Of a DNA stretch of 64,000 nucleotides, positions 30,659-42,800 are shown in pieces. The notes below the pieces were generated by a model, which searched no databases, was not told where the DNA came from, and saw only the letters and a list, made by a program, of their open reading frames with translations. The position numbers and the translations under genes are program-made. Origin of the DNA: Patescibacteria group bacterium (GTDB lineage Bacteria > Patescibacteriota > Minisyncoccia > Phycocordibacterales > Phycocordibacteraceae). Every line of letters begins with the position of its first letter. Positions within the stretch are counted from its first letter, which is position 1. The stretch spans positions 405,847-469,846 of the forward strand of contig JAZKIU010000001.1 of assembly GCA_040384705.1 (NCBI GenBank), read 5' to 3'.

Positions 30659-30910
30659 ATGGCGACACACTGGTTCTTCACTGAGGGCGACCTCGTCGCC
30701 CTCAAAGCCGATGCAGAAGGATATCCTTCTGTGCTTGCCGATGAGGCATGGCCGCTGCGGGCCGTGAGGGTGACGCGCGTGCCGGAGTATCTCGCCGACA
30801 TCACTCCTCACCCGCAGTACTTCTGCCTGCTGCGAGCTGACGACACATACATCGAACGAGGGCCAGGTGATCCCATGCGGGTGAATGGCTCCTGGTTCGA
30901 GAAGGCGTGA
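30659..30910 (+). CDS. hypothetical protein (83 aa)
   Basis: ORF only. Confidence 0.3.
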
Positions 30911-30990
30911 CAGAGGGCGGTCCGGAACATAACCGGGCCGCCCTTTCTCTTTTGCCCTCAAAAATCAGTGGGTGTACTATGGGAATAAAT

Positions 30991-32061
30991 ATGGCTAAGA
31001 ACTATTACGAAGTGCTCGGCGTCGACAAGAAGGCCACCAAGGACGACATCAAGAAGGCGTTCCGGAAGCTCGCGCAGAAGCATCACCCAGACAAGGGTGG
31101 TGATGAGGCGAAGTTCAAGGAGATAACGGAGGCGTACGCGACCTTGGCGGACGAGAAGCGCCGCCGCGAATACGATTCATACGGCCAGAGCTTCGGGGCA
31201 GGCGGGGGACCGGGAGCGGGGCCCGGCGGCTTCGACTTCAATGGGTTCCAGAACGGGAACATCGAGTTCGATCTCTCGGACCTTTTCGAGGGCTTCGGAG
31301 ACATATTCGGTGGGCAGTCCCAGGGACGCGGGCGCATGAAGCGCGGGCGCGACATTTCAATAGATATAGAGGTCTCGTTCAAGGAGTCGGTGCTCGGTGC
31401 CAAGCGCCAGGTGCTACTCACGAAAGTCAGCAAGTGCGATATCTGCGCGGGTTCGGGAGCCAAGCCCGGGACAGAGATGCTCTCCTGCACGACCTGCAAC
31501 GGTGCAGGGAGGGTGCATGAGACGCGCAACACGCCGTTCGGCCAGATGTCGAGCGTGCGCAACTGCCCGCAGTGCGAAGGCACAGGGAAGATTCCGAAGG
31601 AGAAGTGCGCTACCTGCAGCGGTCACGGCGTCCTCAAGAAAGAAGAGGAGATAAAGATAACTATCCCGGCCGGTATCGATGGCGGGGAGATGATACGCAT
31701 GCCAGGGCTCGGCGAGGCGGTTAAGGGTGGCACACCCGGCGACCTCTACGTAAAAGTGCATGTGAAGCCGCACGCCGTCTTCAAGAAACAGGGACTCAAC
31801 CTCATCATGAACATGCCGGTGAAGCTGACCGACTCGCTTCTGGGCACTACTGCCACGATCGAGACCATCGAAGGCAAGAAGCTCGAGGTGAAGGTCCCTC
31901 CCATGGAGGCTCCCGAGGAGACGCTTCGTATCCGGGGGAAGGGCGTGAACATCGACGGGACACACGGCGACCTCCTTATTAAGCTTTCGGTCACCCTTCC
32001 GAAGAAGCTTTCCACCAAAGCAAAGAAGGCAATTGAGGAACTCAAGTCCGAGGGTCTCTAG
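30991..32061 (+). CDS. dnaJ: chaperone DnaJ
   Basis: J-domain (YYEVLGV...HPDK). Gly-rich linker. Four CxxCxGxG repeats. Confidence 0.9.
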
Positions 32062-32610: not shown

Positions 32611-32657
32611 GCTAGTTTTTTCGCGGCTGTAAAGTCGTTATGTTAGAATGGTTTCTT

Positions 32658-34445
32658 ATGTCGAAAATCGACGAGACAAAGAAGACGCGTATAGCGCCCG
32701 TCCTGCGGGCGTATTTCAAGGTAGCTATACAGTATCCATGGCTGCTTGCGCTCATATTCCTCGGTGGCGCCATCATCGAAGGAGCAGGAGTGTGGTCCGC
32801 GCTCGTCATCAAGGATTTCGCGGACCTGATTTCGCAAGGAACACCAACCGCTGACGTCGTCACGAGCCTCTTCTGGGTTCTCGCGCTCTTCGCAGGGGTT
32901 TCGTTCCTTGGCTGGTGTGGCCAGCGCATGCGCCAGCTCGGTCTCGTGTATATCGAGCCGAAAGCGATGAACGACCTCTCCCGCTCTGCGTTCACGTACT
33001 TGATAGGGCACTCGCATGATTTCTTCGCATCCAACTTCGCTGGCTCCTTGAGCCGTCGCGTGACGCGCTACGCCCGCTCATTCGAGAGCGTGCTGGATAA
33101 CATATCCTTCAATTTCTATTCCACACTCCTGTATACGGTGGGCATCCTCGTCGTGCTTTCCATGAAGAGCCTAGTGCTCGGTGCAATAGTGCTCGCATGG
33201 ACCATTTTCTTCATATACCTGCAGATAGCGATGGCGAAGTGGCGCCAACCGCTACGCATCCTCCGTGCGGAAGAGGACAGCAAGGTCACGGGCGTGCTCT
33301 CGGATGCGATAGGGAACCACTCTGCCATAAGCCAGTTCGCAGCCGAGAAGCATGAGATCTCGATATTCGATAAGACGCTCGATAGCTGGAAGGCTGCGAC
33401 GCTCAAGTCGTGGCTCGCCGATAACTGGATATGGGCCGTCCAGGGGTTGTTCGTGCTCTTCATTGAAGTGGCGATACTCGCCGCGAGCATACTGCTATGG
33501 GAACGTGGGCTCTTCACGGTGGGCGACTTCGTGCTCATCCAGATCTATATCATCGGTCTTATCGATAAGGTCTGGAACATCGGGCACGCTATGAAGAACC
33601 TGTACTCCGCATTCGCGGAGGCGTACGAGATGGTGGAGATATTCGAGAAGCCGCACGCGATTCAGGATGTTGCGGACGCAAAGCCGCTCATACTCACCAA
33701 GGGGCAGGTGGACTTCAATGACGTGACCTTCAGGTTTAATGAGGACCGGGTCATCCTTGAGAAATTCAATCTCACGATACACGGCGGGGAGAAGGTGGCG
33801 CTTGTGGGTCCGTCCGGAGCCGGCAAATCGACGCTGACACGACTCCTTCTGCGCCTGTATGACGTGAGTGATGGAGCGGTGCGTATCGATGGCCAGGACG
33901 TGCGAACACTCACCCAGGCAAGCCTGCGCGAGAACATCTCCTTCGTACCGCAGGAGCCGGTCCTTTTCCATCGAACGCTGCGTGAGAACATCGCGTATGG
34001 GAGGCCGGACGCCACGCTCGAGGAGATCATCATCGCAGCGAAGAAGGCGCACTGCCATGAGTTCATCGATTCGCTCCCGCAGAAGTACGAGACGTATGTG
34101 GGTGAGCGGGGGATAAAGCTATCAGGAGGCGAGCGCCAGCGCGTCGCTATCGCGCGCGCCATTCTCAAGAACGCTCCTGTGCTTATACTCGACGAGGCGA
34201 CTTCGAGCCTGGATTCCGAGTCCGAAGCTCTCATCCAGGACGCGCTCCGTGTCCTCATGGAAGGGAAGACGGTCATTGTCGTGGCGCACCGCCTCTCTAC
34301 CATCATGAGCATGGACCGTATCCTTGTTATCGAGGGTGGCCGTATAGCGGCTGAGGGTACGCATGACCAACTACTAGACGAGAAGGATGGACTCTATCAC
34401 AAGCTGTGGAGTATTCAGGCGGGTGGGTTTCTTTCCGAAAACTAG
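32658..34445 (+). CDS. ABC transporter, fused permease/ATP-binding (MsbA/exporter type)
   Basis: Six N-terminal TM helices. Walker A GPSGAGKST. Signature LSGGERQRVAIARA. Walker B ILDEATS. Confidence 0.9.
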   Translation: MSKIDETKKTRIAPVLRAYFKVAIQYPWLLALIFLGGAIIEGAGVWSALVIKDFADLISQGTPTADVVTSLFWVLALFAGVSFLGWCGQRMRQLGLVYIEPKAMNDLSRSAFTYLIGHSHDFFASNFAGSLSRRVTRYARSFESVLDNISFNFYSTLLYTVGILVVLSMKSLVLGAIVLAWTIFFIYLQIAMAKWRQPLRILRAEEDSKVTGVLSDAIGNHSAISQFAAEKHEISIFDKTLDSWKAATLKSWLADNWIWAVQGLFVLFIEVAILAASILLWERGLFTVGDFVLIQIYIIGLIDKVWNIGHAMKNLYSAFAEAYEMVEIFEKPHAIQDVADAKPLILTKGQVDFNDVTFRFNEDRVILEKFNLTIHGGEKVALVGPSGAGKSTLTRLLLRLYDVSDGAVRIDGQDVRTLTQASLRENISFVPQEPVLFHRTLRENIAYGRPDATLEEIIIAAKKAHCHEFIDSLPQKYETYVGERGIKLSGGERQRVAIARAILKNAPVLILDEATSSLDSESEALIQDALRVLMEGKTVIVVAHRLSTIMSMDRILVIEGGRIAAEGTHDQLLDEKDGLYHKLWSIQAGGFLSEN

Positions 34446-34508
34446 TTTTGGAGATTTAATTTTATAGACACTTTCTAAAAATAAGATATATTCATTAATA
34501 ATCTAGTA

Positions 34509-35630
34509 ATGGAAAAGAGGCCAAAATCACAGCAGATAGAAGCACCTTCATTCTCGAAGTCGATTCGCAATGCCTTGGAACGAGTACACCAAGAAGAATC
34601 CCTGGATATTGATGTAAGGGCTGCGGACCCATTGGAAGCCGATAGTTTTTTCAAGGACTCGCTGCCGCAGCTAAATAAGAAAGATTCTTCCGAAGAAGTG
34701 ATTAAGCAAATTCGTATACTTATTCCGGATGCAGAGAAAATTGAAGTTTATACATTGGTCGAGGCGCGAGCTGCGCTCCGGGATTTAGGACATATTGCTG
34801 CGTCATTACGTAAAAAGAATACTGCGATCTCGAAAGTGCCCGAGCTCGAAGATGCACTTCTGGCGATTGGCCTTAAAATTAATGAGGTGCCACGCGATAC
34901 TGTTTTCAGCTATGGCCCAAGAAACCCATTGGATGAACGTGAGAGAACATTCACTGGGCTTGAGGCGGAGAAGCTTTTTATCCGCAGCTTCAGGGAAGGT
35001 ATGAGTGAGTTATACGCAGGTGTAGATGCTCTTATATCTGCATATGAAGCAGGACCAGAAAGCGAGATTTGGGAAAGGGAGTGCAGAAAAGCTACAACAG
35101 CATTCGAACGGATGGTGGAGGCAATTAGGAGCATACGAAAGAATTTACCTCCCGAGACGTTTACCTACGAATTGCGGCCATATTTTGATCCAATTGAGCT
35201 GGAAGGCAAAACCTATTACGCCCCGGGTGGCGCACAAATGCCCGTTCTTCTCTACGATCAATTGCTTTGGGGTTCAGATTCAAATGATGAAAGCTACAAA
35301 GCTTATAAAGAAGATAATATCGCTTATAGTCCGCCTGCTGTACGCGAATTATCCGCATCGCTCGATGGGGCACCAAGCATGCTGACGAAGTTGCTCAATG
35401 CAAGTAATGGAGGGGATCCGGAGCAGACGCGAAAAAGTGCGGCCGCTCTTCTACAGCTGTCAAACAGTCTTCTTCGTTTTCGTGCGCCACACCAAAAAGT
35501 AGCAGCTGACAATTTTGCACTGCGATCTGAACACTCCCTAGGAAGCGGCGGATATACCCCTGAAATTCTGCAAAGATTGTCCGACCACGTTCAAGAAGTG
35601 CGCGCGCAAATCGTGCAGCTAGCAAACTAA
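34509..35630 (+). CDS. hypothetical protein (373 aa), first gene of low-GC island
   Basis: AT-rich codon usage unlike its neighbours. No confident domain. Confidence 0.55.
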   Translation: MEKRPKSQQIEAPSFSKSIRNALERVHQEESLDIDVRAADPLEADSFFKDSLPQLNKKDSSEEVIKQIRILIPDAEKIEVYTLVEARAALRDLGHIAASLRKKNTAISKVPELEDALLAIGLKINEVPRDTVFSYGPRNPLDERERTFTGLEAEKLFIRSFREGMSELYAGVDALISAYEAGPESEIWERECRKATTAFERMVEAIRSIRKNLPPETFTYELRPYFDPIELEGKTYYAPGGAQMPVLLYDQLLWGSDSNDESYKAYKEDNIAYSPPAVRELSASLDGAPSMLTKLLNASNGGDPEQTRKSAAALLQLSNSLLRFRAPHQKVAADNFALRSEHSLGSGGYTPEILQRLSDHVQEVRAQIVQLAN

Positions 35631-35633
35631 CTT

Positions 35634-36716
35634 ATGGAAGCATTGAAGACTATCCCGGTTGGACTGGTGCGTTCCGTAGTGGAGGAGAATATTCCGACGG
35701 GCTCTGTTCCTAAGTATTCTAAAGTTTACATGAGTTATCCAATGCGGCTCGAAGCAATGGCTCTTGATCCAAGCAAGATCGAAATTCGAGAGGATGCCTC
35801 GTATGCAGCTGGTCAAATCAACTTTAAACTTGGCGCTTTTAGAAATGTAACAGTCAAGAATAATAACAATTCGAATGAGTTAATCATTAGGGCATTGCCG
35901 GCACGAATAGCCCTAGTGCGCCATTCAGCAGAGCTGCTGCGACAAGCCTTAGGCTATGCTGGCGGTTTGATAATTGACGTTGAAAGCGAAATTGATGAAT
36001 TGAGGCATTGCGGCCTGGGCTCAAGTAGCAACACAATCGCGTGCGTTGGCTATGCTATCAACGAATTTTTTGGGAATCCAATTTCTCCTATAGCCCTGAT
36101 GAGATACCTCGCTAGGAATCACGGCGAGGAGATAGATGCGAACCCAAAAGTACTATCCCCTGTTCAATGCATCGGCGGCTCGGCAGCGGCCGGAATCACG
36201 GATGGAGGGGTATTTGTTATTGCCGGATCCCAGACTGTAATTGCTACGCAGCTAGTACCTGATGATTTCACTATTGTACTTGGTATTCCTACGGACTTCG
36301 AGTATCCGGACGCAGAGTATCTCCTTAAGAAGGAGGCCGAGGCAATGCCGAAATTTCTGCACACCGGCAGACAATATGGACCTGAGATTGCTTATCGACT
36401 AGTGCATGAAGGGTTGCCGGACCTGGTCGAGGGTCGCCTAAGCGGTATCGGTAGACTTATCTACGATTACAGATTCAAAATGGGCAGCATCGATAACTGC
36501 TCATTTGTATATCCTCGTATGAATGAGATAGCGCAGGATATTTCTCCTCTATTTGAAGAACATCATGCTGAGATTTTGGCATTGTCGTCCGTGGGTCCGG
36601 GTTTTTTTGCGGTTACAAGAGAGTCAAGCTACTGTGAAGAAATTTTCTCGGCGAGCGGCCTCACTACCTATTCGTTTAAACCTCATAACGGGAAGTACAA
36701 TATAGTATATGGATAA
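35634..36716 (+). CDS. GHMP-kinase-fold enzyme, beta-ribofuranosylaminobenzene-5-phosphate (beta-RFAP) synthase-like
   Basis: The Gly/Ser-rich loop HCGLGSSSNTIACVGYA resembles the GHMP/beta-RFAP synthase motif. About 360 aa. Adjacent and translationally coupled to the neighbours. Confidence 0.45.
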   Translation: MEALKTIPVGLVRSVVEENIPTGSVPKYSKVYMSYPMRLEAMALDPSKIEIREDASYAAGQINFKLGAFRNVTVKNNNNSNELIIRALPARIALVRHSAELLRQALGYAGGLIIDVESEIDELRHCGLGSSSNTIACVGYAINEFFGNPISPIALMRYLARNHGEEIDANPKVLSPVQCIGGSAAAGITDGGVFVIAGSQTVIATQLVPDDFTIVLGIPTDFEYPDAEYLLKKEAEAMPKFLHTGRQYGPEIAYRLVHEGLPDLVEGRLSGIGRLIYDYRFKMGSIDNCSFVYPRMNEIAQDISPLFEEHHAEILALSSVGPGFFAVTRESSYCEEIFSASGLTTYSFKPHNGKYNIVYG

Positions 36717-37368
36717 TTTCATTATCAGTAACGAGTATTGGAATACGGGGGAGACCGTTGAATATTTTGGAACCAAGCCTCCTGATCCACGAATCGTTAA
36801 ACGAGCGAAAGCATTGCTATTAGCGAATCCCGGTATAGCGTTGCGGGCACTTGATCTTGGCTGTGGAGGTGGAAGGCATACACGTATGCTGCGAGATCTT
36901 GGATTTGATGTAGATGCCTGTGATGTAAATCCAGCAATGCTTGAGGCAACGCGATCCATCGCGCCTGAACTCGCTGGACAGGTTGTGGAGGCATCCATAT
37001 TGTCATTGCCATACGCAGACCGAACATTCGACATGATAGTTTCAACGGGTGTGCTGCATCAAGTGTATTCCATAGAGGAGTATGGTCGAGCAACTAAAGA
37101 AATAGCACGCGTCATGAAGCCTGGTGCGATATTTTGCATGAACGTTTTCACCTCCAAGACTATCGATTCTAGACTGCAGAAAATGCGGACTGACGAGCCG
37201 GTCTACCTGACCAATGAGGGATTGCCTATGACGTTATTGAGCAGCACCGAAGTGTGTGAGCTACTGGAGCGACAAGGTATTAGGCTTGAAGGAAAGCCAG
37301 AAGAATCCGATAAGCAAGAACCCACTGGAATCCGCACTGTGTTCCGAGCTATCTTTAAACGAGATTAG
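36709..37368 (+). CDS. class I SAM-dependent methyltransferase
   Basis: Motif I ALDLGCGGGRHT. Motif post-I DVDACD. MTase fold length. Confidence 0.7.
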   Translation: MDNFIISNEYWNTGETVEYFGTKPPDPRIVKRAKALLLANPGIALRALDLGCGGGRHTRMLRDLGFDVDACDVNPAMLEATRSIAPELAGQVVEASILSLPYADRTFDMIVSTGVLHQVYSIEEYGRATKEIARVMKPGAIFCMNVFTSKTIDSRLQKMRTDEPVYLTNEGLPMTLLSSTEVCELLERQGIRLEGKPEESDKQEPTGIRTVFRAIFKRD

Positions 37369-37910
37369 CGGGTTGCGAGAAAGTCGGCTATCTCTTCGAA
37401 ATTCTTGCTCCACACGCCGGAGCGCTCGCTTTCGGGATATTCCGTAAACGCTCTAGTCTCGCCCGCGAGTGCAAGCACGCCATTCCATCCGCCGCGCGGA
37501 TCACCGATAACTTCTTCTGTTTTAATATGGATTTCTACACGATAACTGTACTCTTTTAGGAATCCGTCCGGCTCCGCATAGGCGGCGGCTATTTCAAAAT
37601 AGCCTGTTCGGTCGAGGACTCCTTGCAAAAGCATTAATAACTTTGCTGCAGGCACTTGGCGTTCTACGTATTGCGTATAGGGACCAGGAAGACCGAGATG
37701 CCGTATGAAAAGACTGTGGTCCTCTCGAATCGCAGGCGCCCCGTAGTCCTTAGCTGCTTGAAGAGCCGTCGTACGCGCAATCTCGGCACTCGTATCGGCT
37801 TGGATTTCGGGATAGTCCCGATCAACCGGAAACAGCTCGACACCGTATTTCCCGAAGCTTTCACTCGCTGCACGAACCTTTCCTGGGTTTTGTGTAACTA
37901 GATAAATCAT
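37365..37910 (-). CDS. Ham1/RdgB-family non-canonical NTP pyrophosphatase-like
   Basis: The N-terminus IYLVTQNPGKVRAASE resembles the RdgB LATGNxGKVxE motif. About 180 aa. Confidence 0.5.
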   Translation of the reverse strand: MIYLVTQNPGKVRAASESFGKYGVELFPVDRDYPEIQADTSAEIARTTALQAAKDYGAPAIREDHSLFIRHLGLPGPYTQYVERQVPAAKLLMLLQGVLDRTGYFEIAAAYAEPDGFLKEYSYRVEIHIKTEEVIGDPRGGWNGVLALAGETRAFTEYPESERSGVWSKNFEEIADFLATR

Positions 37911-37969
37911 GCTATAATAATAGCAGACGATAGCAGTTCGTCACAACACCATGTGGATGGAGCACGGAA

Positions 37970-38554
37970 ATGATATTTCTTACCGGCCCGCATGGATCGG
38001 GCAAGACCACAGGAAGCAAGTTGCTTGAGCAATACGGATTCAAAGTCATTGATTTGGGACCGACACTTCGTCGCCTCCACACCGAGAGCGATTCCTCGCT
38101 GTCCTTCGGGGAATGGTGCAGAGCCGGGGAAGCAGATCAAGGAGCGAACTTCACGGATAACCTGCTCATCAACGAGATTAATAAGAGGTTCAGCGCAGTC
38201 GGAGGATCTTCTTCTGATTTCCTGGATCTATTGATTGTGGGTAGTCGTTCCGCTGAGGGCATCCAATATCTTCGGACGCGCGCAAAATGCGAAACAGCAT
38301 ACACCGATTCGATCATCTTTCTGGATGCCCCGTTCGAGATACTTCTGCGCAATTACAGTGAGCGTGAGGGATCACGATATTCGCGAGGTACGTTTCAAGT
38401 TATTCTGGAGCGTGATCGCGAGATGGGTCTGGAATCAATTCGATCGATCGCAAACTATGTGGTCAGAAACGATGGGTCGCTAGAGCTTCTTGCCGCCAAT
38501 TTGGAGGCGTTAATCTTTGTGACGCTTAAATATCGAAGGAGGGTCGTTGAATGA
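37970..38554 (+). CDS. P-loop NTPase / small nucleotide kinase-like
   Basis: Walker A GPHGSGKTT at the N-terminus. 194 aa. Confidence 0.5.
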   Translation: MIFLTGPHGSGKTTGSKLLEQYGFKVIDLGPTLRRLHTESDSSLSFGEWCRAGEADQGANFTDNLLINEINKRFSAVGGSSSDFLDLLIVGSRSAEGIQYLRTRAKCETAYTDSIIFLDAPFEILLRNYSEREGSRYSRGTFQVILERDREMGLESIRSIANYVVRNDGSLELLAANLEALIFVTLKYRRRVVE

Positions 38555-39015
38555 CCAGATCAGATGTACTGGATGCCTGGGAAGCTTTTTTGAAAGGAAA
38601 GCTGACGGAGCAGGAGGCCTCGCTGGACGATGCCGAGAGTACCGCTCGCGATGCTCCAGGATCAAATGTAACGCGATCGGACCAGAGCCGCGAGCAATAC
38701 AGCAACCTGGCACTCGGCCTTCAACAAGTCATCGCGGCAACGAAGGATGCGCTTGGGTTCGTCCAGAAGATTCGACTACAACCGCGCACAACGAACATAA
38801 TCCGACCAGGTTCTCTTGTCAGGACGAGTTCGCCGAACTCGGCGGTTAGTTTCCTTGTCATTCCATTCGCGCAAGGTGACAAACTTACCATCGGCCACGA
38901 AGAAATTCTTGTGATTTCGCCTGAAAGCCCTATCGGCGCTCAGTTAATCGGAAAGGAGGTGGGCGACGAGCTGCGGTATAAGAGTGAAGAGCTAGATATC
39001 GACGAGATTCTCTAG
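38551..39015 (+). CDS. GreA/GreB C-terminal-domain-like protein (Rnk-like)
   Basis: The C-terminal segment VISPESPIGAQLIGKEVGDEL resembles GreA (SPIARGLIGKEEDD). Confidence 0.5.
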   Translation: MTRSDVLDAWEAFLKGKLTEQEASLDDAESTARDAPGSNVTRSDQSREQYSNLALGLQQVIAATKDALGFVQKIRLQPRTTNIIRPGSLVRTSSPNSAVSFLVIPFAQGDKLTIGHEEILVISPESPIGAQLIGKEVGDELRYKSEELDIDEIL

Positions 39016-39047: not shown

Positions 39048-39076
39048 AAGGGCCCGCCATGCGGGCCCTTTTCTTT
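39048..39076. terminator. bidirectional intrinsic terminator
   Basis: aagggcccgc cat gcgggccctt + ttcttt. Lies between convergent genes. Confidence 0.7.
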
Positions 39077-39094: not shown

Positions 39095-39556
39095 TTACCA
39101 GGCTGAAGTGATCGCTCTTTTGTCCAGCCATTCTTCAATCCTCCGACGTGTCCCGGACGATACGCAATCAGGTAAGTCGCACGGGTCGAAGAAAGACCAT
39201 TGCCCGATTTCAAAGTGTCCGGTTGGGGCAAATGTGAAGGCCTTGATAACGAAAACGGTGATTGTATCCTTCTTATGCTCATACTGATTCAAATACTCGC
39301 TGAGCTCGGCGGCATAGGAAAATTCCGAGATGCCAAGTTCTTCCCTTAATTCGCGACGTAAAGTAGCCTCAGCAGCCTCATCCCGCTTGCCTGCTCCTCC
39401 AGGCAGATACCATCTCTCGTCGTATCGGTGTCGGACAAGTAGGACTTGACCTTGCGGATTAACCAGAATCGCCCTCGCGCCTATTGTGACCGGTCGGGCC
39501 AACCGCCAATACAGTTTCCTTATAATAGTCGCGAGTTTGAGAATGATTTCAAGCAT
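39095..39556 (-). CDS. NUDIX hydrolase
   Basis: Nudix box GGAGKRDEAAEATLRRELREELGI. Confidence 0.8.
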   Translation of the reverse strand: MLEIILKLATIIRKLYWRLARPVTIGARAILVNPQGQVLLVRHRYDERWYLPGGAGKRDEAAEATLRRELREELGISEFSYAAELSEYLNQYEHKKDTITVFVIKAFTFAPTGHFEIGQWSFFDPCDLPDCVSSGTRRRIEEWLDKRAITSAW

Positions 39557-39708: not shown

Positions 39709-40341
39709 ATGCTCGTATATATCATCGCCGTGCTTGCGTACGGCGCCGCTATCGCCGCTACCACTGCGGCCTACTGGCACTACGATCGCGACCACCAAGC
39801 GGGCCATACGGTTCCGAATCGCTGGTCCTGGCTCATCTGGGGCGTCACCACCATCGTGGAGGCCCTCACGTTCCAGGCTATCAGCGAGGGTGCGACGGTG
39901 ATCGAGAACGTGCTGAAGACTTCGGTCTTCTACGTTTCAGGCATCTGTTGCATCCTGGTCACCATCCGCATCTGGCGGAAGGCCGAATGGAAGATGCCGC
40001 AGTGGAACGAGGTGATATCCGTTATCGCCTCTCTCGCCGCCATCGTCCTCTGGGTCATCTACCATGAAGCGTGGTGGGCCCACGTGGTCGCCATCGTCGC
40101 CATCCCAGTCTCGTTCATTCCGAGCTGGATCGATGCGCGAAGGAACCCGGAAGCTGAGCAAAGTCGTGCGTGGGGCCTTTGGACCCTCGGTGACGCGCTC
40201 ACTTTCGGCGGCATTCTGCTTCTCATCGACACCGATAAGGAGCTTCCGTACATCATCACTGAGTTCGGGTGCCATGCGGCCATGTGGCTGCTGGTCTGGC
40301 GCACGCGGCTATGCGCTACAGCAAAACGGCTATTGGCCTAG
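39709..40341 (+). CDS. hypothetical membrane protein (210 aa)
   Basis: 6 hydrophobic helices. Confidence 0.4.
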   Translation: MLVYIIAVLAYGAAIAATTAAYWHYDRDHQAGHTVPNRWSWLIWGVTTIVEALTFQAISEGATVIENVLKTSVFYVSGICCILVTIRIWRKAEWKMPQWNEVISVIASLAAIVLWVIYHEAWWAHVVAIVAIPVSFIPSWIDARRNPEAEQSRAWGLWTLGDALTFGGILLLIDTDKELPYIITEFGCHAAMWLLVWRTRLCATAKRLLA

Positions 40342-40448
40342 AGCTAGTAGCCGCGCCCACGGGGGACAGCGCGTACCGCTGTCCCCTTTATTGTTTTCCT
40401 CTGTCTTTCAATTCTGGTTATCAGCACGGTATATAATCCAATCAACCT

Positions 40449-41009
40449 ATGAAGGTGCTCGTCCTCAATAATTTCGCCATTGGGCAAACACATCTCGGAC
40501 AATCCGTCTTCGCTGCGCGTACCTTCAAGAAGGGGGACGTCATTACGAAGTTCACCGGCCCCATACTTCATAAATCGGAGATACCGAAGCGCTATAAGGG
40601 CGAAGCGGATCGCTACGTGCAGATAGGGGCGGATGAGTTCATGGGACCCTCGGGCGAAATAGACGATTTGATAAACCACTCGTGCGAGCCCAACGCCGGC
40701 CTTAAATTCTCCAAGGCAGGAATTCTTCTAGTCGCTATACACCCAATCGAAGAGGGGGAGGAAATTACGTGGGATTACTCTACTACCATGTTCGAGAATG
40801 CCTGGAAGATGAAGTGTGACTGCAGAAAAGGCACCTGTCGCAAGATAATTGGGGACTTCATGCTCCTCGATACACCCCTCCAGCAGATGTACCGCCGCTT
40901 AAACATTATTCCCAAGTACTTGAAAAACTACATGGATAGTGCGGAATATAATGTATATACTGAAGGCATTCAGCAACTACGCAAGCATGCCGCAACAAAA
41001 GGGAAATAA
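40449..41009 (+). CDS. SET-domain protein (lysine methyltransferase-like)
   Basis: NHSCEPN and a Y-containing C-terminal motif (ITWDY). Post-SET-like Cys (CDCRKGTC). Confidence 0.7.
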   Translation: MKVLVLNNFAIGQTHLGQSVFAARTFKKGDVITKFTGPILHKSEIPKRYKGEADRYVQIGADEFMGPSGEIDDLINHSCEPNAGLKFSKAGILLVAIHPIEEGEEITWDYSTTMFENAWKMKCDCRKGTCRKIIGDFMLLDTPLQQMYRRLNIIPKYLKNYMDSAEYNVYTEGIQQLRKHAATKGK

Positions 41010-41165
41010 GCTGTTCTGGGGAGTCGCCATCACTTGCTACGCGCTTGTCGTATTAGCCACGTACTTCCGCATGTACGTCTATCACGCATACCCCATTTAC
41101 TATACGGAGGATGAGATACCTGACGCAGCAGGCGAGATCTGGACTGCCATTAGCGAACTCGGCCT

Positions 41166-42800
41166 ATGATGTGCGAGTGGGATGTCGCGCAGTTTCTTAT
41201 CTTCTCGACGAACGGTGAGCCGCTTATATACTACTCGCATCTTACGTCGATAGTCATATTCCTTGCGCTCCTCGGTTTCACCCTCCTTAAGCTCAAGCAG
41301 TGGCCGCGTGGCGCTTTCCGCCTCATGGCTATCGCCTACATCGTATGGCTGTTCTGCGACTTAGTGCTGTGGGCGAACGACAACATCGAGCATGTATTGT
41401 TCTTCTGGACGCTCATCAACCTCGTTGAGCCACTCATATTCGTCGCGGCATTCGCGTATTGTATCCAGTTCATCGATAACCGTACGCTTTCCTCCAAGAG
41501 CCGGTGGGCGATCTTCGCGCTTCTTTTCCCCACACTGGTCATGGCACCCATGGGCCTCTCGGTCGTCGGCTTTGACTACACCACGTGCGACCGCAATGTT
41601 GTGGAGGGAATTGCTGCGTACTACAACTATTTCCTCGAAGCGCTCTTTGTATTCCTACTCCTACTTAAGACCGGTAGCATCCTTATATACAAGCGATATG
41701 CAGGACGTCGCGTCAGGCTTACGCTGGTCGTCGTTGGAACATCCCTACTCCTCTTCTCGTTCCTCATAGCTAACTTCCTGGGGACGTTCACGGGCGATTA
41801 TGTAACAAGCCAGTACGGACACATTGCCGTACCGATATTCGCTGCCTTCCTGGCATATATCACCATTAAGTACGAGTCGTTCGAGCCGCGCATTCTCCTC
41901 GTGGATACACTGGTCGTTGCGCTGTTTATCCTTCTCCTCTCTCTTCTCTTCGTCGAAGAGAATAACTACCAGATATATGCGAATGCTCTCGCGTTCGCGA
42001 TAATGATCCCACTCGGCTACACCCTCGTGACAAGTATCCGCAAGGAGGTGAAGACAAGGAAAGAGATTCAGCAACTCGCTACCAATCTCGAGTCTGCGAA
42101 CGGAAAGCTGAAGGAACTAGATCAGCTCAAGAGTGAATTCCTCTCGGTCGCGACGCACCAGTTGCGTGCACCGCTCACGGCAATACGCGGCTACGCAGCC
42201 AATATTAGCGAAGGCAGCTACGGTGCGGTCCCAGAATATCTGAACGATCCACTGCATGTCATCCAGGAATCCACCCGGCTTATGGTCAACTCCATCGAGG
42301 ACTACCTCAACATCTCCCGTATCGAGCAGGGACGCATGAAGTATGAGAAGAGCGACTTCGATATCTCCGATATATCGAAGCGAGTCATCGAGGAACTCCT
42401 GCCGGTGGCAACCAAGAAGGGCCTTGCTCTTACCCTCACCGCAAACGAGCCGATAACGGTCAATGCGGATATCGGCAAGATAAAGCAAGTGCTGACGAAT
42501 CTCGTCGATAACGCCATCAAGTACACGGAGAAGGGGAGCATTGCTGTGACTGTAGAGAAGAAGGAGAAGGTCGCACGAGTAACCATCACCGATAGTGGTG
42601 TGGGCATAGCCGCTGATGAGATAGATAAGCTCTTCTCCAAGTTCACTCGAGCGCGTGCTGCGAACGAAGTGAACACGACCGGTACCGGCCTCGGACTCTA
42701 CGTAGCGAAGCAGCTCGTCGAGGGTAATGGTGGAAAGGTGTGGGTGGAATCAGACGGACTTGGTAAGGGTTCTCGGTTCGTCGTTGAGCTTCCGGTATAA
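41166..42800 (+). CDS. membrane sensor histidine kinase (orphan)
   Basis: About 7 TM helices. HisKA (LSVATHQLRAPLTAIRGY). HATPase_c N/G1/G2 boxes (DNAIKYT, DSGVGI, GTGLGLY). Confidence 0.85.
   Translation: MMCEWDVAQFLIFSTNGEPLIYYSHLTSIVIFLALLGFTLLKLKQWPRGAFRLMAIAYIVWLFCDLVLWANDNIEHVLFFWTLINLVEPLIFVAAFAYCIQFIDNRTLSSKSRWAIFALLFPTLVMAPMGLSVVGFDYTTCDRNVVEGIAAYYNYFLEALFVFLLLLKTGSILIYKRYAGRRVRLTLVVVGTSLLLFSFLIANFLGTFTGDYVTSQYGHIAVPIFAAFLAYITIKYESFEPRILLVDTLVVALFILLLSLLFVEENNYQIYANALAFAIMIPLGYTLVTSIRKEVKTRKEIQQLATNLESANGKLKELDQLKSEFLSVATHQLRAPLTAIRGYAANISEGSYGAVPEYLNDPLHVIQESTRLMVNSIEDYLNISRIEQGRMKYEKSDFDISDISKRVIEELLPVATKKGLALTLTANEPITVNADIGKIKQVLTNLVDNAIKYTEKGSIAVTVEKKEKVARVTITDSGVGIAADEIDKLFSKFTRARAANEVNTTGTGLGLYVAKQLVEGNGGKVWVESDGLGKGSRFVVELPV

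Follow-up and report, generated by a model that had tools for sequence, protein, structure and literature searches.

A gene cassette of Patescibacteria that may encode the synthesis of a tryptophan-derived aryl-ribonucleotide

A 64,000-nt stretch of a Patescibacteria genome (contig JAZKIU010000001.1, positions 405,847 to 469,846), hereafter called the window, carries a compact gene cassette around a GHMP-fold protein. We tentatively propose, as a reading that may well be right, that the cassette makes a tryptophan-derived, oxygenated, and methylated aryl-ribonucleotide, with a nucleoside monophosphate (NMP) kinase-like protein, a Ham1-family pyrophosphatase, a NUDIX hydrolase, and a Gre-factor paralog managing its phosphorylated forms. 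The putative connection with ribose phosphate rests on features of the GHMP protein that resemble β-ribofuranosylaminobenzene 5'-phosphate (RFAP) synthase and ForT and on the nucleotide-handling neighbors. The putative connection with tryptophan rests on the ligand-binding residues of a PrnB-family heme enzyme and on a TrpB gene embedded in some cassettes. The genes in the window are as follows (ORF, open reading frame; SAM, S-adenosylmethionine).

34509..35630, + strand: ORF1 (373 aa), PrnB-family heme enzyme with an IDO/TDO-like fold (Pfam PF08933, PDB 2v7i)
35634..36716, + strand: ORF2 (360 aa), GHMP-fold protein, probably of the β-RFAP-synthase/ForT branch (AlphaFold2, Foldseek, hhalign)
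36709..37368, + strand: ORF3 (219 aa), class I SAM-dependent methyltransferase (Pfam Methyltransf_11)
37365..37910, - strand: ORF4 (181 aa), divergent Ham1/ITPase-family NTP pyrophosphatase (Pfam PF01725)
37970..38554, + strand: ORF5 (194 aa), NMP-kinase-like P-loop protein (Walker A, profile against the PDB)
38551..39015, + strand: diverged Gre-factor paralog (154 aa; Pfam GreA_GreB C-terminal domain)
39095..39556, - strand: NUDIX hydrolase (153 aa), possible accessory member (Pfam NUDIX)

Relationship of ORF2 to β-RFAP synthase and ForT

The AlphaFold2 model of ORF2 (pLDDT 93) has a GHMP-superfamily fold, and ForT (8aoz) ranks first when the model is searched with Foldseek (E 1.7e-15, TM 0.68/0.75). 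ORF2 fails the curated NCBIfam models of both β-RFAP synthase (17.8 bits; cutoff, 328) and homoserine kinase (ThrB, 19.3 bits; cutoff, 194). The best matches among 32 family members (E 1.5e-12 to NF040726 and 2.3e-9 to TIGR00144) are far short of the cutoffs, and the RFAP-type and homoserine-kinase hidden Markov models (HMMs) match all 32 members about equally. The initial annotation had described ORF2 as a GHMP protein of the β-RFAP synthase type. This description probably holds for the branch, as judged from the Foldseek ranking, the sequence neighbors, and the motifs, but not for membership in the β-RFAP synthase family itself, and ORF2 is not assigned to the ordinary GHMP kinases such as homoserine and mevalonate kinases either.

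An exhaustive profile search found 324 relatives of ORF2 among 1.84 billion (1.84e9) representatives. At the tail of the 150 matches listed, BetaRFA-P_synth is the best curated model for eight of the ten full-length matches inspected. Comparison of an RFAP-like neighbor family with the ORF2 family by hhalign gives a probability of 100% (E 9e-51), and the best PDB match of this neighbor family is ForT (E 4e-10), followed by homoserine kinase (2.5e-8). The link to ForT needed this bridging family: the ORF2 family profile finds only kinase motif II and a weak ForT match in the PDB, a single-sequence phmmer search of the PDB with ORF2 gives nothing useful, and P0350 alone is uninformative against the PDB. 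The bridging family (P0339-P0360, alignment A2) is a sister family of uncharacterized RFAP-synthase-like GHMP proteins; its members carry the motifs PxRIHxTxID, a GGGG loop, HxGLGST, and SSVGP and score under the NCBIfam RFAP cutoffs.

In alignments of sequence fragments, Pro17, Arg19, Leu20, and Asp28 of ForT correspond to Pro36, Arg38, Leu39, and Asp45 of ORF2, which are invariant in the family and form a PxRL..D motif. The segment His99-Ser-Gly101-Phe-Gly-Ser of ForT aligns with His125-Cys-Gly127-Leu-Gly-Ser of ORF2, where His125, Gly127, Gly129, and Ser130 are invariant. The reference residues of the RFAP branch include His99 and Gly101 of ForT and His98 and Asp19 of MTH0830 (PMC9832568, PMC6787355). 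The invariant Glu234 aligns, with moderate reliability, with Glu211, the only ForT residue whose mutation kills activity (PMC9832568). As for ThrB motifs I and II (PxGSGLGSSAA), only the GLGSS core of motif II matches ORF2, and the N-terminal motif is of the RFAP/ForT type. The acceptor-binding residues Ser21, Lys263, and Gln266 of ForT align with Glu/Asn/Asp40, Met283, and Ile286, respectively. Since all three are replaced in the ORF2 family, a different acceptor is expected.

RFAP synthase and ForT both perform PRPP (phosphoribosyl pyrophosphate)-dependent electrophilic aromatic substitution (PMC6787355, PMC9832568). A C-C bond is formed, and PPi (and CO2) is released. The observations above suggest that the ORF2 family is a distinct subfamily of this branch, in which the PRPP-binding and catalytic scaffold is probably kept and the acceptor pocket is probably different. 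ORF2 is predicted to be a PRPP-dependent aryl ribotide synthase forming a C- or N-linkage.

The NCBI protein deposited for the ORF2 gene (P0001) has 319 aa, 89% of the 360-aa ORF, and evidently starts near Met42 (window 35634-35756). This start is probably wrong because it removes the invariant Gly10, Pro36, and Arg38, which belong to the ForT/RFAP-type N-terminal motif.

ORF1, a PrnB-family heme enzyme

ORF1, which had been regarded as a 373-aa unknown, proved to be a full-length PrnB-family protein. It matches Pfam PF08933 at 121.5 bits (cutoff, 27; E 5e-35) and the PrnB structures 2v7i (E 8e-48) and 9dfg (E 1e-41) across the full length. His328 aligns with the proximal heme ligand His313 of PfPrnB, and Gly240-Gly241-Ala-Gln and Ser346 (Gly-Ser346-Gly) align with Gly210/211 and Ser319 of FbPrnB. 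In FbPrnB, these residues hold the carboxylate of the substrate, tryptophan, while the amine ligates the iron (PMC11791213). His328, Gly240/Gly241, and Ser346 are invariant across 29 CPR (Candidate Phyla Radiation) and actinomycete family members, suggesting that ORF1 binds and oxidizes an α-amino acid, most likely L-tryptophan. A PrnB-type heme enzyme in this position makes tryptophan the putative source of the aglycone. Neither the halogenases prnA and prnC nor the oxygenase prnD are found in the window or at any locus with annotated neighbors. A kynurenine/NAD-like route to a pyridine nucleotide was considered and rejected, since quinolinate lies beyond what one PrnB-like enzyme could reach.

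Distribution and linkage of the cassette genes

The search for syntenic clusters in other genomes recovered the cassette across CPR bacteria, Actinomycetes, and Firmicutes, at 80 genome loci (49 from CPR or metagenome-assembled genomes, MAGs; 13 from Firmicutes; 18 from actinomycetes). Neighbors were counted within 7 kb of the GHMP gene, and ranges give the counts obtained by tblastn with a single query and with multiple queries. Many lineages of Patescibacteria carry the GHMP family, among them Saccharibacteria, Vogelbacteria, Minisyncoccia, Paceibacterota, Microgenomates, and CPR2. Outside this group, it was found in Streptomyces, Micromonospora, Nocardia, and Dactylosporangium, among the anaerobic Firmicutes (Eubacterium ramulus ATCC 29099, Lachnotalea glycerini DSM 28816, and gut Clostridia MAGs), and in some MAGs labeled archaeal. 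The partner genes are found at the following frequencies.

Methyltransferase: 63-65 of 80 loci, mostly directly 3' of the GHMP gene
Ham1: 50-53 of 80 loci
P-loop protein: 37-40 of 80 loci
Gre-like protein: 15-20 of 80 loci

Ham1 stands next to the GHMP gene at 43 of the 49 CPR/MAG loci and 10 of the 13 Firmicute loci, and the P-loop protein is present at 31 and 9 of these loci, respectively. The Gre-like gene lies near the cassette at 16 CPR/MAG and 4 Firmicute loci. Several partners are fused with each other: PrnB with GHMP (P0218, P0216), GHMP with the methyltransferase (P0010, P0111, L050), PrnB with Ham1 (P0154), and a HAD domain with PrnB (P0195); in P0280, the C-terminus of a GHMP protein is joined to a racemase fragment. 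P0216 (883 aa) comprises an N-terminal HEPN/Toprim-N fragment, a partial PrnB, and a full GHMP protein, and may be either a gene-calling artifact or a real multidomain protein. The conserved synteny and the fusions indicate that the genes are functionally linked, and because of this linkage, the modified-nucleotide or C-riboside pathway put forward in the initial annotation stays the best reading of the cassette.

Nucleotide-type neighbors at various loci include Ham1, NUDIX, NDK, nucleoside 2-deoxyribosyltransferase, a uridine-kinase-like protein, and NT5C/HAD proteins. In Streptomyces, the triad of PrnB, GHMP, and methyltransferase genes is accompanied by a large MfnA/histidine-decarboxylase-like PLP (pyridoxal phosphate) enzyme, GT2, APH-type kinases, HAD, NUDIX, GNAT, and MFS/ABC proteins, a context that suggests elaboration into a secreted nucleoside natural product.

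Some loci show variant contexts. On a 1.46-Mb JGI contig (L005, 3771-10539), the PrnB-GHMP pair occurs with an APS-kinase-like P-loop protein, a PRK/uridine-kinase-family protein, a glycosyltransferase, a sulfotransferase, and NT5C/HAD phosphatases, with the methyltransferase on the opposite strand; this context hints at nucleoside tailoring. The extended cassette of E. ramulus ATCC 29099 (L060, 4627-13437) comprises an MfnA-like decarboxylase, a U32 protein, GHMP, a CobD/HisC-like enzyme, a Cof-type HAD phosphatase, a methyltransferase, a MiaB/RimO-like methylthiotransferase, and a B12-binding radical SAM enzyme, which suggests further tailoring of the product by methylthiolation or C-methylation. 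L. glycerini (L064) has at least the same core of decarboxylase, U32, GHMP, PLP enzyme, and methyltransferase.

Exchange of the oxygenase module

PrnB is present at 41 loci and a U32-family protein at 22, and the two never occur together (nominal p 2e-9). A gene for a HisC/CobD-like PLP enzyme or a bona fide amino-acid racemase accompanies U32 at 21 of the 22 loci but PrnB at none of the 41 (nominal p 8e-16). The split follows lineage: all 18 actinomycete loci are of the PrnB type, and all gut or anaerobic Firmicute loci having a module are of the U32 type. The invariant residues of the GHMP protein are identical between the two types. This mutual exclusion, the split by lineage, and the unchanged GHMP residues suggest that one substrate is handled by either an aerobic or an anaerobic route. 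The U32 proteins give weak Pfam U32 matches (E 5e-6 to 4e-11) and match no NCBIfam model, and Cys186, Cys190, His196, and Cys213 are invariant in the 22 sequences; these residues may be ligands of a [4Fe-4S] cluster like that of UbiU/V, TrhP, and RlhA. The U32 proteins characterized so far hydroxylate aromatic substrates without O2, depend on prephenate, and contain Fe-S clusters (PMC6747719, PMC10990095, PMC6599085, PMC5727448).

A third variant has neither PrnB nor U32. At five mammal-associated loci of the Saccharibacteria type, including Candidatus Nanosyncoccus alces, a TrpB gene lies inside the cassette in the order GHMP-Ham1-TrpB-P-loop, and its product is a bona fide TrpB (TIGR00263, 475 bits; cutoff, 392). 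The methyltransferase is found at none of these five loci, as compared with 59 of the 63 loci with an oxygenase (nominal p 1e-5). The GHMP proteins of the TrpB type carry nine coordinated substitutions at positions that are invariant elsewhere. The methyltransferase was probably lost together with the oxygenase because it would methylate the newly installed oxygen. That the GHMP protein is kept without any hydroxylase argues against a kinase acting on a new hydroxyl group.

The remaining cassette proteins

The identities that the initial annotation gave to ORF3, ORF4, and ORF5 were borne out. ORF3 matches Pfam Methyltransf_11 (E 1.7e-20), as expected for a class I SAM methyltransferase, and its UbiE/UbiG-like matches are weak. 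The Ham1-like pyrophosphatase ORF4 matches PF01725 (Ham1p_like) at 64 bits (cutoff, 22.5). It reaches 88.9 bits against the XTP/dITP diphosphatase equivalog of NCBIfam (cutoff, 203) and 64 bits against another equivalog model (cutoff, 145), and thus appears to be a family member of uncertain specificity and no equivalog. ORF5 has the Walker A motif GPHGSGKT and matches Pfam AAA_18/AAA_17. A profile of six orthologs matches the AdkA-like 3lw7 and the UPF0200 protein SSO1041 in the PDB at full length (E 1e-11), and the next matches are UMP, adenylate, and UMP-CMP kinases, so the P-loop kinase is more closely described as NMP-kinase-like.

The Gre-like protein matches the GreA_GreB C-terminal domain of Pfam barely above the cutoff (27.5 against 26.9 bits) and shows the two-domain Gre architecture in the alignment. 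The Firmicute copy also matches weakly the NDP-kinase regulator Rnk. The NUDIX protein matches Pfam NUDIX (E 1.4e-14), and its GC content at third codon positions (GC3, 0.53) is under the window mean. In Saccharibacteria (L001) and Streptomyces (L009), the cassette likewise has a NUDIX gene next to it. No ortholog of the window NUDIX protein was found by tblastn at the 80 loci, which makes its membership in the cassette weak.

Layout, boundaries, and residence of the locus

The five ORFs were located at the coordinates of the initial annotation, and independent Logan gene calls from another assembly (373, 360, 219, 181, and 194 aa) agree with them; the same calls include the 154-aa Gre-like and 153-aa NUDIX proteins. 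The translational coupling proposed for ORF1-ORF2-ORF3 is consistent with the 3-nt gap between ORF1 and ORF2 (35630/35634) and the 8-nt overlap between ORF2 and ORF3 (36709-36716). The methyltransferase and Ham1 genes are convergent with an overlap of 4 nt, the Ham1 and P-loop genes are divergent with 59 bp between them, and the Gre-like gene, which overlaps the P-loop gene by 4 nt, is translationally coupled to it. Three further elements were placed.

34465..34492, + strand: promoter-like site 5' of the PrnB-like gene, sigma-70-type (consensus match only)
37917..37946, - strand: promoter-like site for Ham1 in the divergent intergenic region (consensus match only)
39048..39070, no strand: GC-rich hairpin (inverted repeat I11), taken as a bidirectional terminator for the Gre-like and NUDIX genes on either side

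The first site, TAGACA-16-TATATT, lies 17 nt before the start of ORF1 and is the best sigma-70-type match in the region (10/12, by consensus only), and the Ham1 site is a 9/12 consensus match with an extended -10 TG. The hairpin has a 10-bp stem with eight GC pairs, followed by a T-run, and closes the unit. The end of the block had been set at 38560; both the low-GC block and the functional unit extend farther, to the Gre-like gene, the terminator hairpin, and probably the NUDIX gene.

A sharp drop in composition had also been reported. Windowed GC and GC3 confirm a dip, with GC falling to 0.466-0.497 between 34 and 38 kb (window, about 0.57), but the region, at 47-50% GC, is not AT-rich as had been stated. 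The GC3 values of the PrnB (0.42), GHMP (0.45), and methyltransferase (0.44) genes are the lowest among the 64 ORFs scored (mean 0.656, sd 0.103; z -2.0 to -2.3), and those of the Ham1, P-loop, Gre-like, and NUDIX genes are intermediate (0.48-0.57). The anomaly is modest though real. The low GC3 of the triad could reflect either xenologous replacement of the triad or weak expression.

The description of the locus as an acquired island did not hold. In the window, no tRNA, integrase, or flanking repeats mark the cassette borders. The cassette of a Vogelbacteria MAG (L003) is bordered by the same DnaJ/DnaK and HisKA flanks, and the identities between the two loci (DnaJ, 48%; GHMP, 45%; PrnB, 42%; Ham1, 53%) are consistent with co-divergence. 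A U32-type Paceibacterota MAG (L044) shares the TM210/SET/HisKA flank. Since flanks and cassette are syntenic and have co-diverged in distant Patescibacteria, the cassette seems to be long-resident, with its oxygenase module exchanged in place. The patchy distribution makes an ancient transfer between phyla likely.

On the 3' side of the cassette (39709-42800), the window encodes a 210-aa membrane protein without a Pfam match (TM210), then a bacterial SET-domain protein (40449-41009), and finally a HisKA sensor kinase (41166-42800), the trio that recurs at L044. An MsbA-like ABC exporter (32640-34445) lies 63 nt 5' of the cassette. The exporter was considered as a cassette member and set aside as probably unrelated, because its GC3 is normal (0.72) and it is absent beside the cassette elsewhere; Streptomyces loci likewise have transporters nearby. 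Farther 5', the DnaJ ORF (30907-32061) with its GTG start encodes 384 aa against 360 aa in the independent call, and an internal ATG is probably the true start.

Proposed pathway

In the first step of the proposed pathway, the PrnB-family heme enzyme would bind L-tryptophan via its amine and carboxylate groups and oxidize the indole with O2, giving either an aromatic or 2-oxindole-type oxygenation or a PrnB-type rearrangement to an aminophenyl-pyrrole. The GHMP-fold enzyme would then join the electron-rich aromatic to C1' of PRPP to form a C- or N-linked aryl ribonucleoside 5'-phosphate, on which the methyltransferase would act, most likely at the oxygen introduced by the oxygenase. The NMP-kinase-like protein may phosphorylate the monophosphate further, and Ham1, perhaps with the NUDIX protein, may turn the triphosphate back to the monophosphate; together they would set the active form and keep the analog from RNA and DNA synthesis. 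The dedicated Gre paralog may rescue RNA polymerase from the analog or mediate its effect. In anaerobic lineages, a U32-family Fe-S protein acting as a prephenate-type hydroxylase, with a HisC/CobD-like PLP enzyme or an amino-acid racemase, would take over the first step. In the mammal-associated Saccharibacteria, TrpB would convert indole to tryptophan, and neither oxygenation nor methylation would follow.

A number of points weigh against this pathway. We infer the aglycone, the order of the steps, the type of glycosidic bond, and the chemistry itself. The mapping of ForT residues rests on aligned sequence fragments with about 15% identity. The loci are not phylogenetically independent, so that the p-values given above overstate the evidence. 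Neither Ham1 nor the P-loop kinase is found at any of the 18 actinomycete loci, and hence the nucleotide-handling module is not universal. Characterized PrnB performs a ring rearrangement and no simple hydroxylation, and it is not obvious how a U32 enzyme with a PLP enzyme would match PrnB chemically. CPR bacteria are generally thought to have no heme biosynthesis, which raises the question of the heme source. The scheme does not explain what the HisC/CobD-like enzyme and the racemase do, and enzymes of the HisC/CobD family typically use phosphorylated substrates, which would fit the product of a kinase. It might be speculated that the aminotransferase recycles the phenylpyruvate co-product of U32 chemistry (PMC10990095); the racemase would not be covered.

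Alternative explanations

An alternative that we regard as rather unlikely is that the GHMP protein is a true ATP-dependent kinase, comparable to ThrB or the L-threonine kinase PduX, acting on an amino-acid-derived intermediate, the product of which is processed by PLP enzymes (HisC/CobD-like or TrpB-like), while the nucleotide enzymes are only loosely related. The protein has a GLGSSS loop, the top PDB sequence match of the A1 profile is homoserine kinase (E 2.6e-6, at motif II), and the homoserine-kinase HMMs match 32 of 32 family members. A hydroxylase acting earlier could make the hydroxyl group for phosphorylation, and the characterized relatives of the co-occurring CobD/HisC-like enzymes take phosphorylated substrates, as in the PduX-CobD and ThrB-ThrC pairs. 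However, the closest sequence neighbors are RFAP-synthase-like, and in Foldseek, ForT comes first and also has the best TM-score and rmsd. Three features are those of ForT and RFAP synthase: the N-terminal PxRL..D motif, a His placed two residues ahead of the G-x-G-S loop, and the equivalent of Glu211. The GHMP protein, with most of its invariant residues, is kept at the TrpB-type loci, which have no hydroxylase, and the HisC/CobD-like partner occurs at 0 of 41 PrnB-type CPR and actinomycete loci. A kinase would also leave unexplained why the coupling with Ham1 and an NMP-kinase-like protein is so tight and why PrnB and Ham1 are fused. An assignment to a known pathway, with ORF2 as an ordinary β-RFAP synthase of methanopterin-type cofactor synthesis or ORF1 as the mark of a pyrrolnitrin cluster, is extremely improbable. 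The weak BetaRFA-P_synth matches and the strong PrnB family match speak for it, but the RFAP score of ORF2 is a small fraction of the cutoff and even the best family member reaches only the E-value given above; other methanopterin genes are absent at all inspected loci, the prnA/prnC halogenase and prnD are absent beside every PrnB homolog inspected, and the partner genes differ wholly from those of both pathways. Two narrower proposals were also rejected: modification of tRNA of the ho5U/mo5U type, since amino-acid-binding residues are conserved and small-molecule enzymes are fused together, and a melatonin-like methoxyindole pathway, which leaves the universally present GHMP enzyme without a role.

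Returning to the tryptophan-derived aryl-ribonucleotide, the same chemistry could instead yield an exported toxic nucleoside or nucleotide antimetabolite against hosts or competitors, with Ham1, NUDIX, and the Gre paralog serving purely for self-resistance; the initial annotation leaned toward such a self-protected pathway, and we give this a minor chance. Gre factors are known to remove misincorporated nucleotides, an MsbA-like exporter lies directly 5' in the window, the distribution across phyla is patchy with atypical codon composition in the window, and the Streptomyces triad lies in biosynthetic-cluster-like contexts (GT2, PLP decarboxylase, APH-type kinases, HAD, NUDIX, GNAT, and MFS/ABC). 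Cultivated Saccharibacteria live on Actinobacteria (PMC10633639). Contrarily, the exporter is not conserved with the cassette, and the NMP-kinase-like protein would activate such a compound rather than detoxify it. The cassette has kept one chromosomal position among housekeeping neighbors over deep divergence in very small genomes, which an endogenous function fits at least equally well. It has no PADLOC, plasmid, or viral associations either: PADLOC recognized no known defense system, its matches being limited to generic methyltransferase and NUDIX ones, and no GHMP family copy was found on plasmids or viral contigs in the collections searched, so that a phage DNA-hypermodification or plasmid-borne system was also rejected. 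The absence of such copies, together with the lack of tRNA, integrase, and flanking repeats, makes it very improbable that the locus is a recently acquired foreign island of genes merely transferred together, without a shared pathway. Such an island would agree with the GC3 of the block, which is the lowest in the window (z as low as -2.3), and with the presence of the cassette in unrelated phyla, but flanks and cassette co-diverge with the Vogelbacteria and Paceibacterota loci, and the multiple independent fusions and strict co-occurrence patterns point to functional coupling. A more specific and bolder version of our proposal, which we consider a long shot, is that the product is a hitherto unknown but widely distributed natural nucleotide, a tryptophan-derived, purine-shaped aryl C-ribonucleotide made via the heme or U32 route. 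In CPR bacteria, gut Firmicutes, and actinomycetes, it would serve as an endogenous transcription effector, perhaps a non-canonical initiating nucleotide/RNA cap or a ligand of the RNA-polymerase secondary channel, with the Gre paralog and with Ham1/NUDIX for turnover or decapping.

Significance and comparison with known systems

CPR bacteria (Patescibacteria) have lost nearly all biosynthesis. A cassette of five to seven genes kept at a stable locus in many of their lineages suggests that its product matters for CPR biology. It is surprising that minimal genomes conserve the cassette, that PrnB and U32 replace each other, and that the distribution crosses phyla. The core is present in the cultivable Streptomyces spp., E. 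ramulus ATCC 29099, and L. glycerini DSM 28816, in which the product can be sought. If the proposed pathway is true, the very few PRPP-dependent aryl C-glycoside synthases would gain a third substrate class, the PrnB family would have a function beyond pyrrolnitrin, and the mostly uncharacterized U32 "anaerobic hydroxylase" family would acquire a new, small-molecule substrate in an aerobic/anaerobic enzyme swap. The pathway would also reveal an unexplored family of Streptomyces clusters, probably encoding a new nucleoside natural product. In the library searched, we found no paper that describes the cassette or joins PrnB homologs with GHMP, U32, or CPR, and the main text of a Saccharibacteria Tn-seq paper (PMC10633639) does not mention the cassette.

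ForT and PrfT of the formycin and pyrazofurin pathways and archaeal β-RFAP synthase (MptG; COG1907 branch) are the known enzymes most relevant to ORF2. They share with it the GHMP fold, with ForT as the best Foldseek match, the PxRL..D motif, the His before the G-x-G-S phosphate loop, an SSVGP-type motif III, the Glu aligned with Glu211, and, presumably, the reaction of PRPP with an electron-rich aromatic to give an aryl ribotide and PPi. ORF2 differs in its low identity to ForT (about 14-17%) and in failing both NCBIfam RFAP models by a wide margin. The partners in the cassette, PrnB or U32, the methyltransferase, and Ham1, are not those of the formycin, pyrazofurin, or methanopterin pathways, and the acceptor is probably tryptophan-derived, unlike p-aminobenzoate or aminopyrazole dicarboxylate.

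PrnB, the monodechloroaminopyrrolnitrin synthase of the pyrrolnitrin pathway, belongs to the IDO/TDO superfamily, and ORF1 is its full-length homolog with the proximal His and the Gly-Gly/Ser residues kept. The identity is about 35-40%, and the cassette has no prnA, prnC, or prnD neighbors. Unlike PrnB itself, the cassette homolog is always paired, and sometimes fused, with a GHMP-fold enzyme and is replaceable by a U32 protein with a PLP enzyme or racemase. This replaceability suggests an oxygenation simpler than the PrnB rearrangement.

The oxygenase swap resembles the pairs UbiH/F/I and UbiU/UbiV, and TrhO and TrhP, in which an O2-dependent enzyme or a U32 Fe-S enzyme is used exclusively for one step; a SAM methyltransferase with UbiE/UbiG-like features comes next, and a set of Cys and His residues is conserved in the cassette U32 proteins (PMC6747719, PMC6599085, PMC10990095). 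In the cassette, however, the O2-dependent partner is a heme protein of the IDO fold and not a flavin or rhodanese-type enzyme, the U32 proteins stand outside the curated NCBIfam models with only weak Pfam U32 matches, an additional HisC/CobD-like or racemase partner is needed, and the substrate is probably neither a quinone precursor nor RNA. RdgB/ITPase house-cleaning and MazZ/DatZ of phage Z-genomes are similar in that Ham1-family and NMP-kinase-like enzymes are tied to a base-modifying pathway. The cassette Ham1 differs from these in being divergent (well under the equivalog cutoff) and, in some organisms, fused with PrnB, and no phage association was found for it. The cassette thus appears to belong to none of the RFAP/ForT, pyrrolnitrin, and Ubi/Trh pathways. 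Its aryl-ribotide synthase subfamily, its precursor, and its oxygenase swap would each be new within PRPP-dependent aryl-ribotide chemistry.

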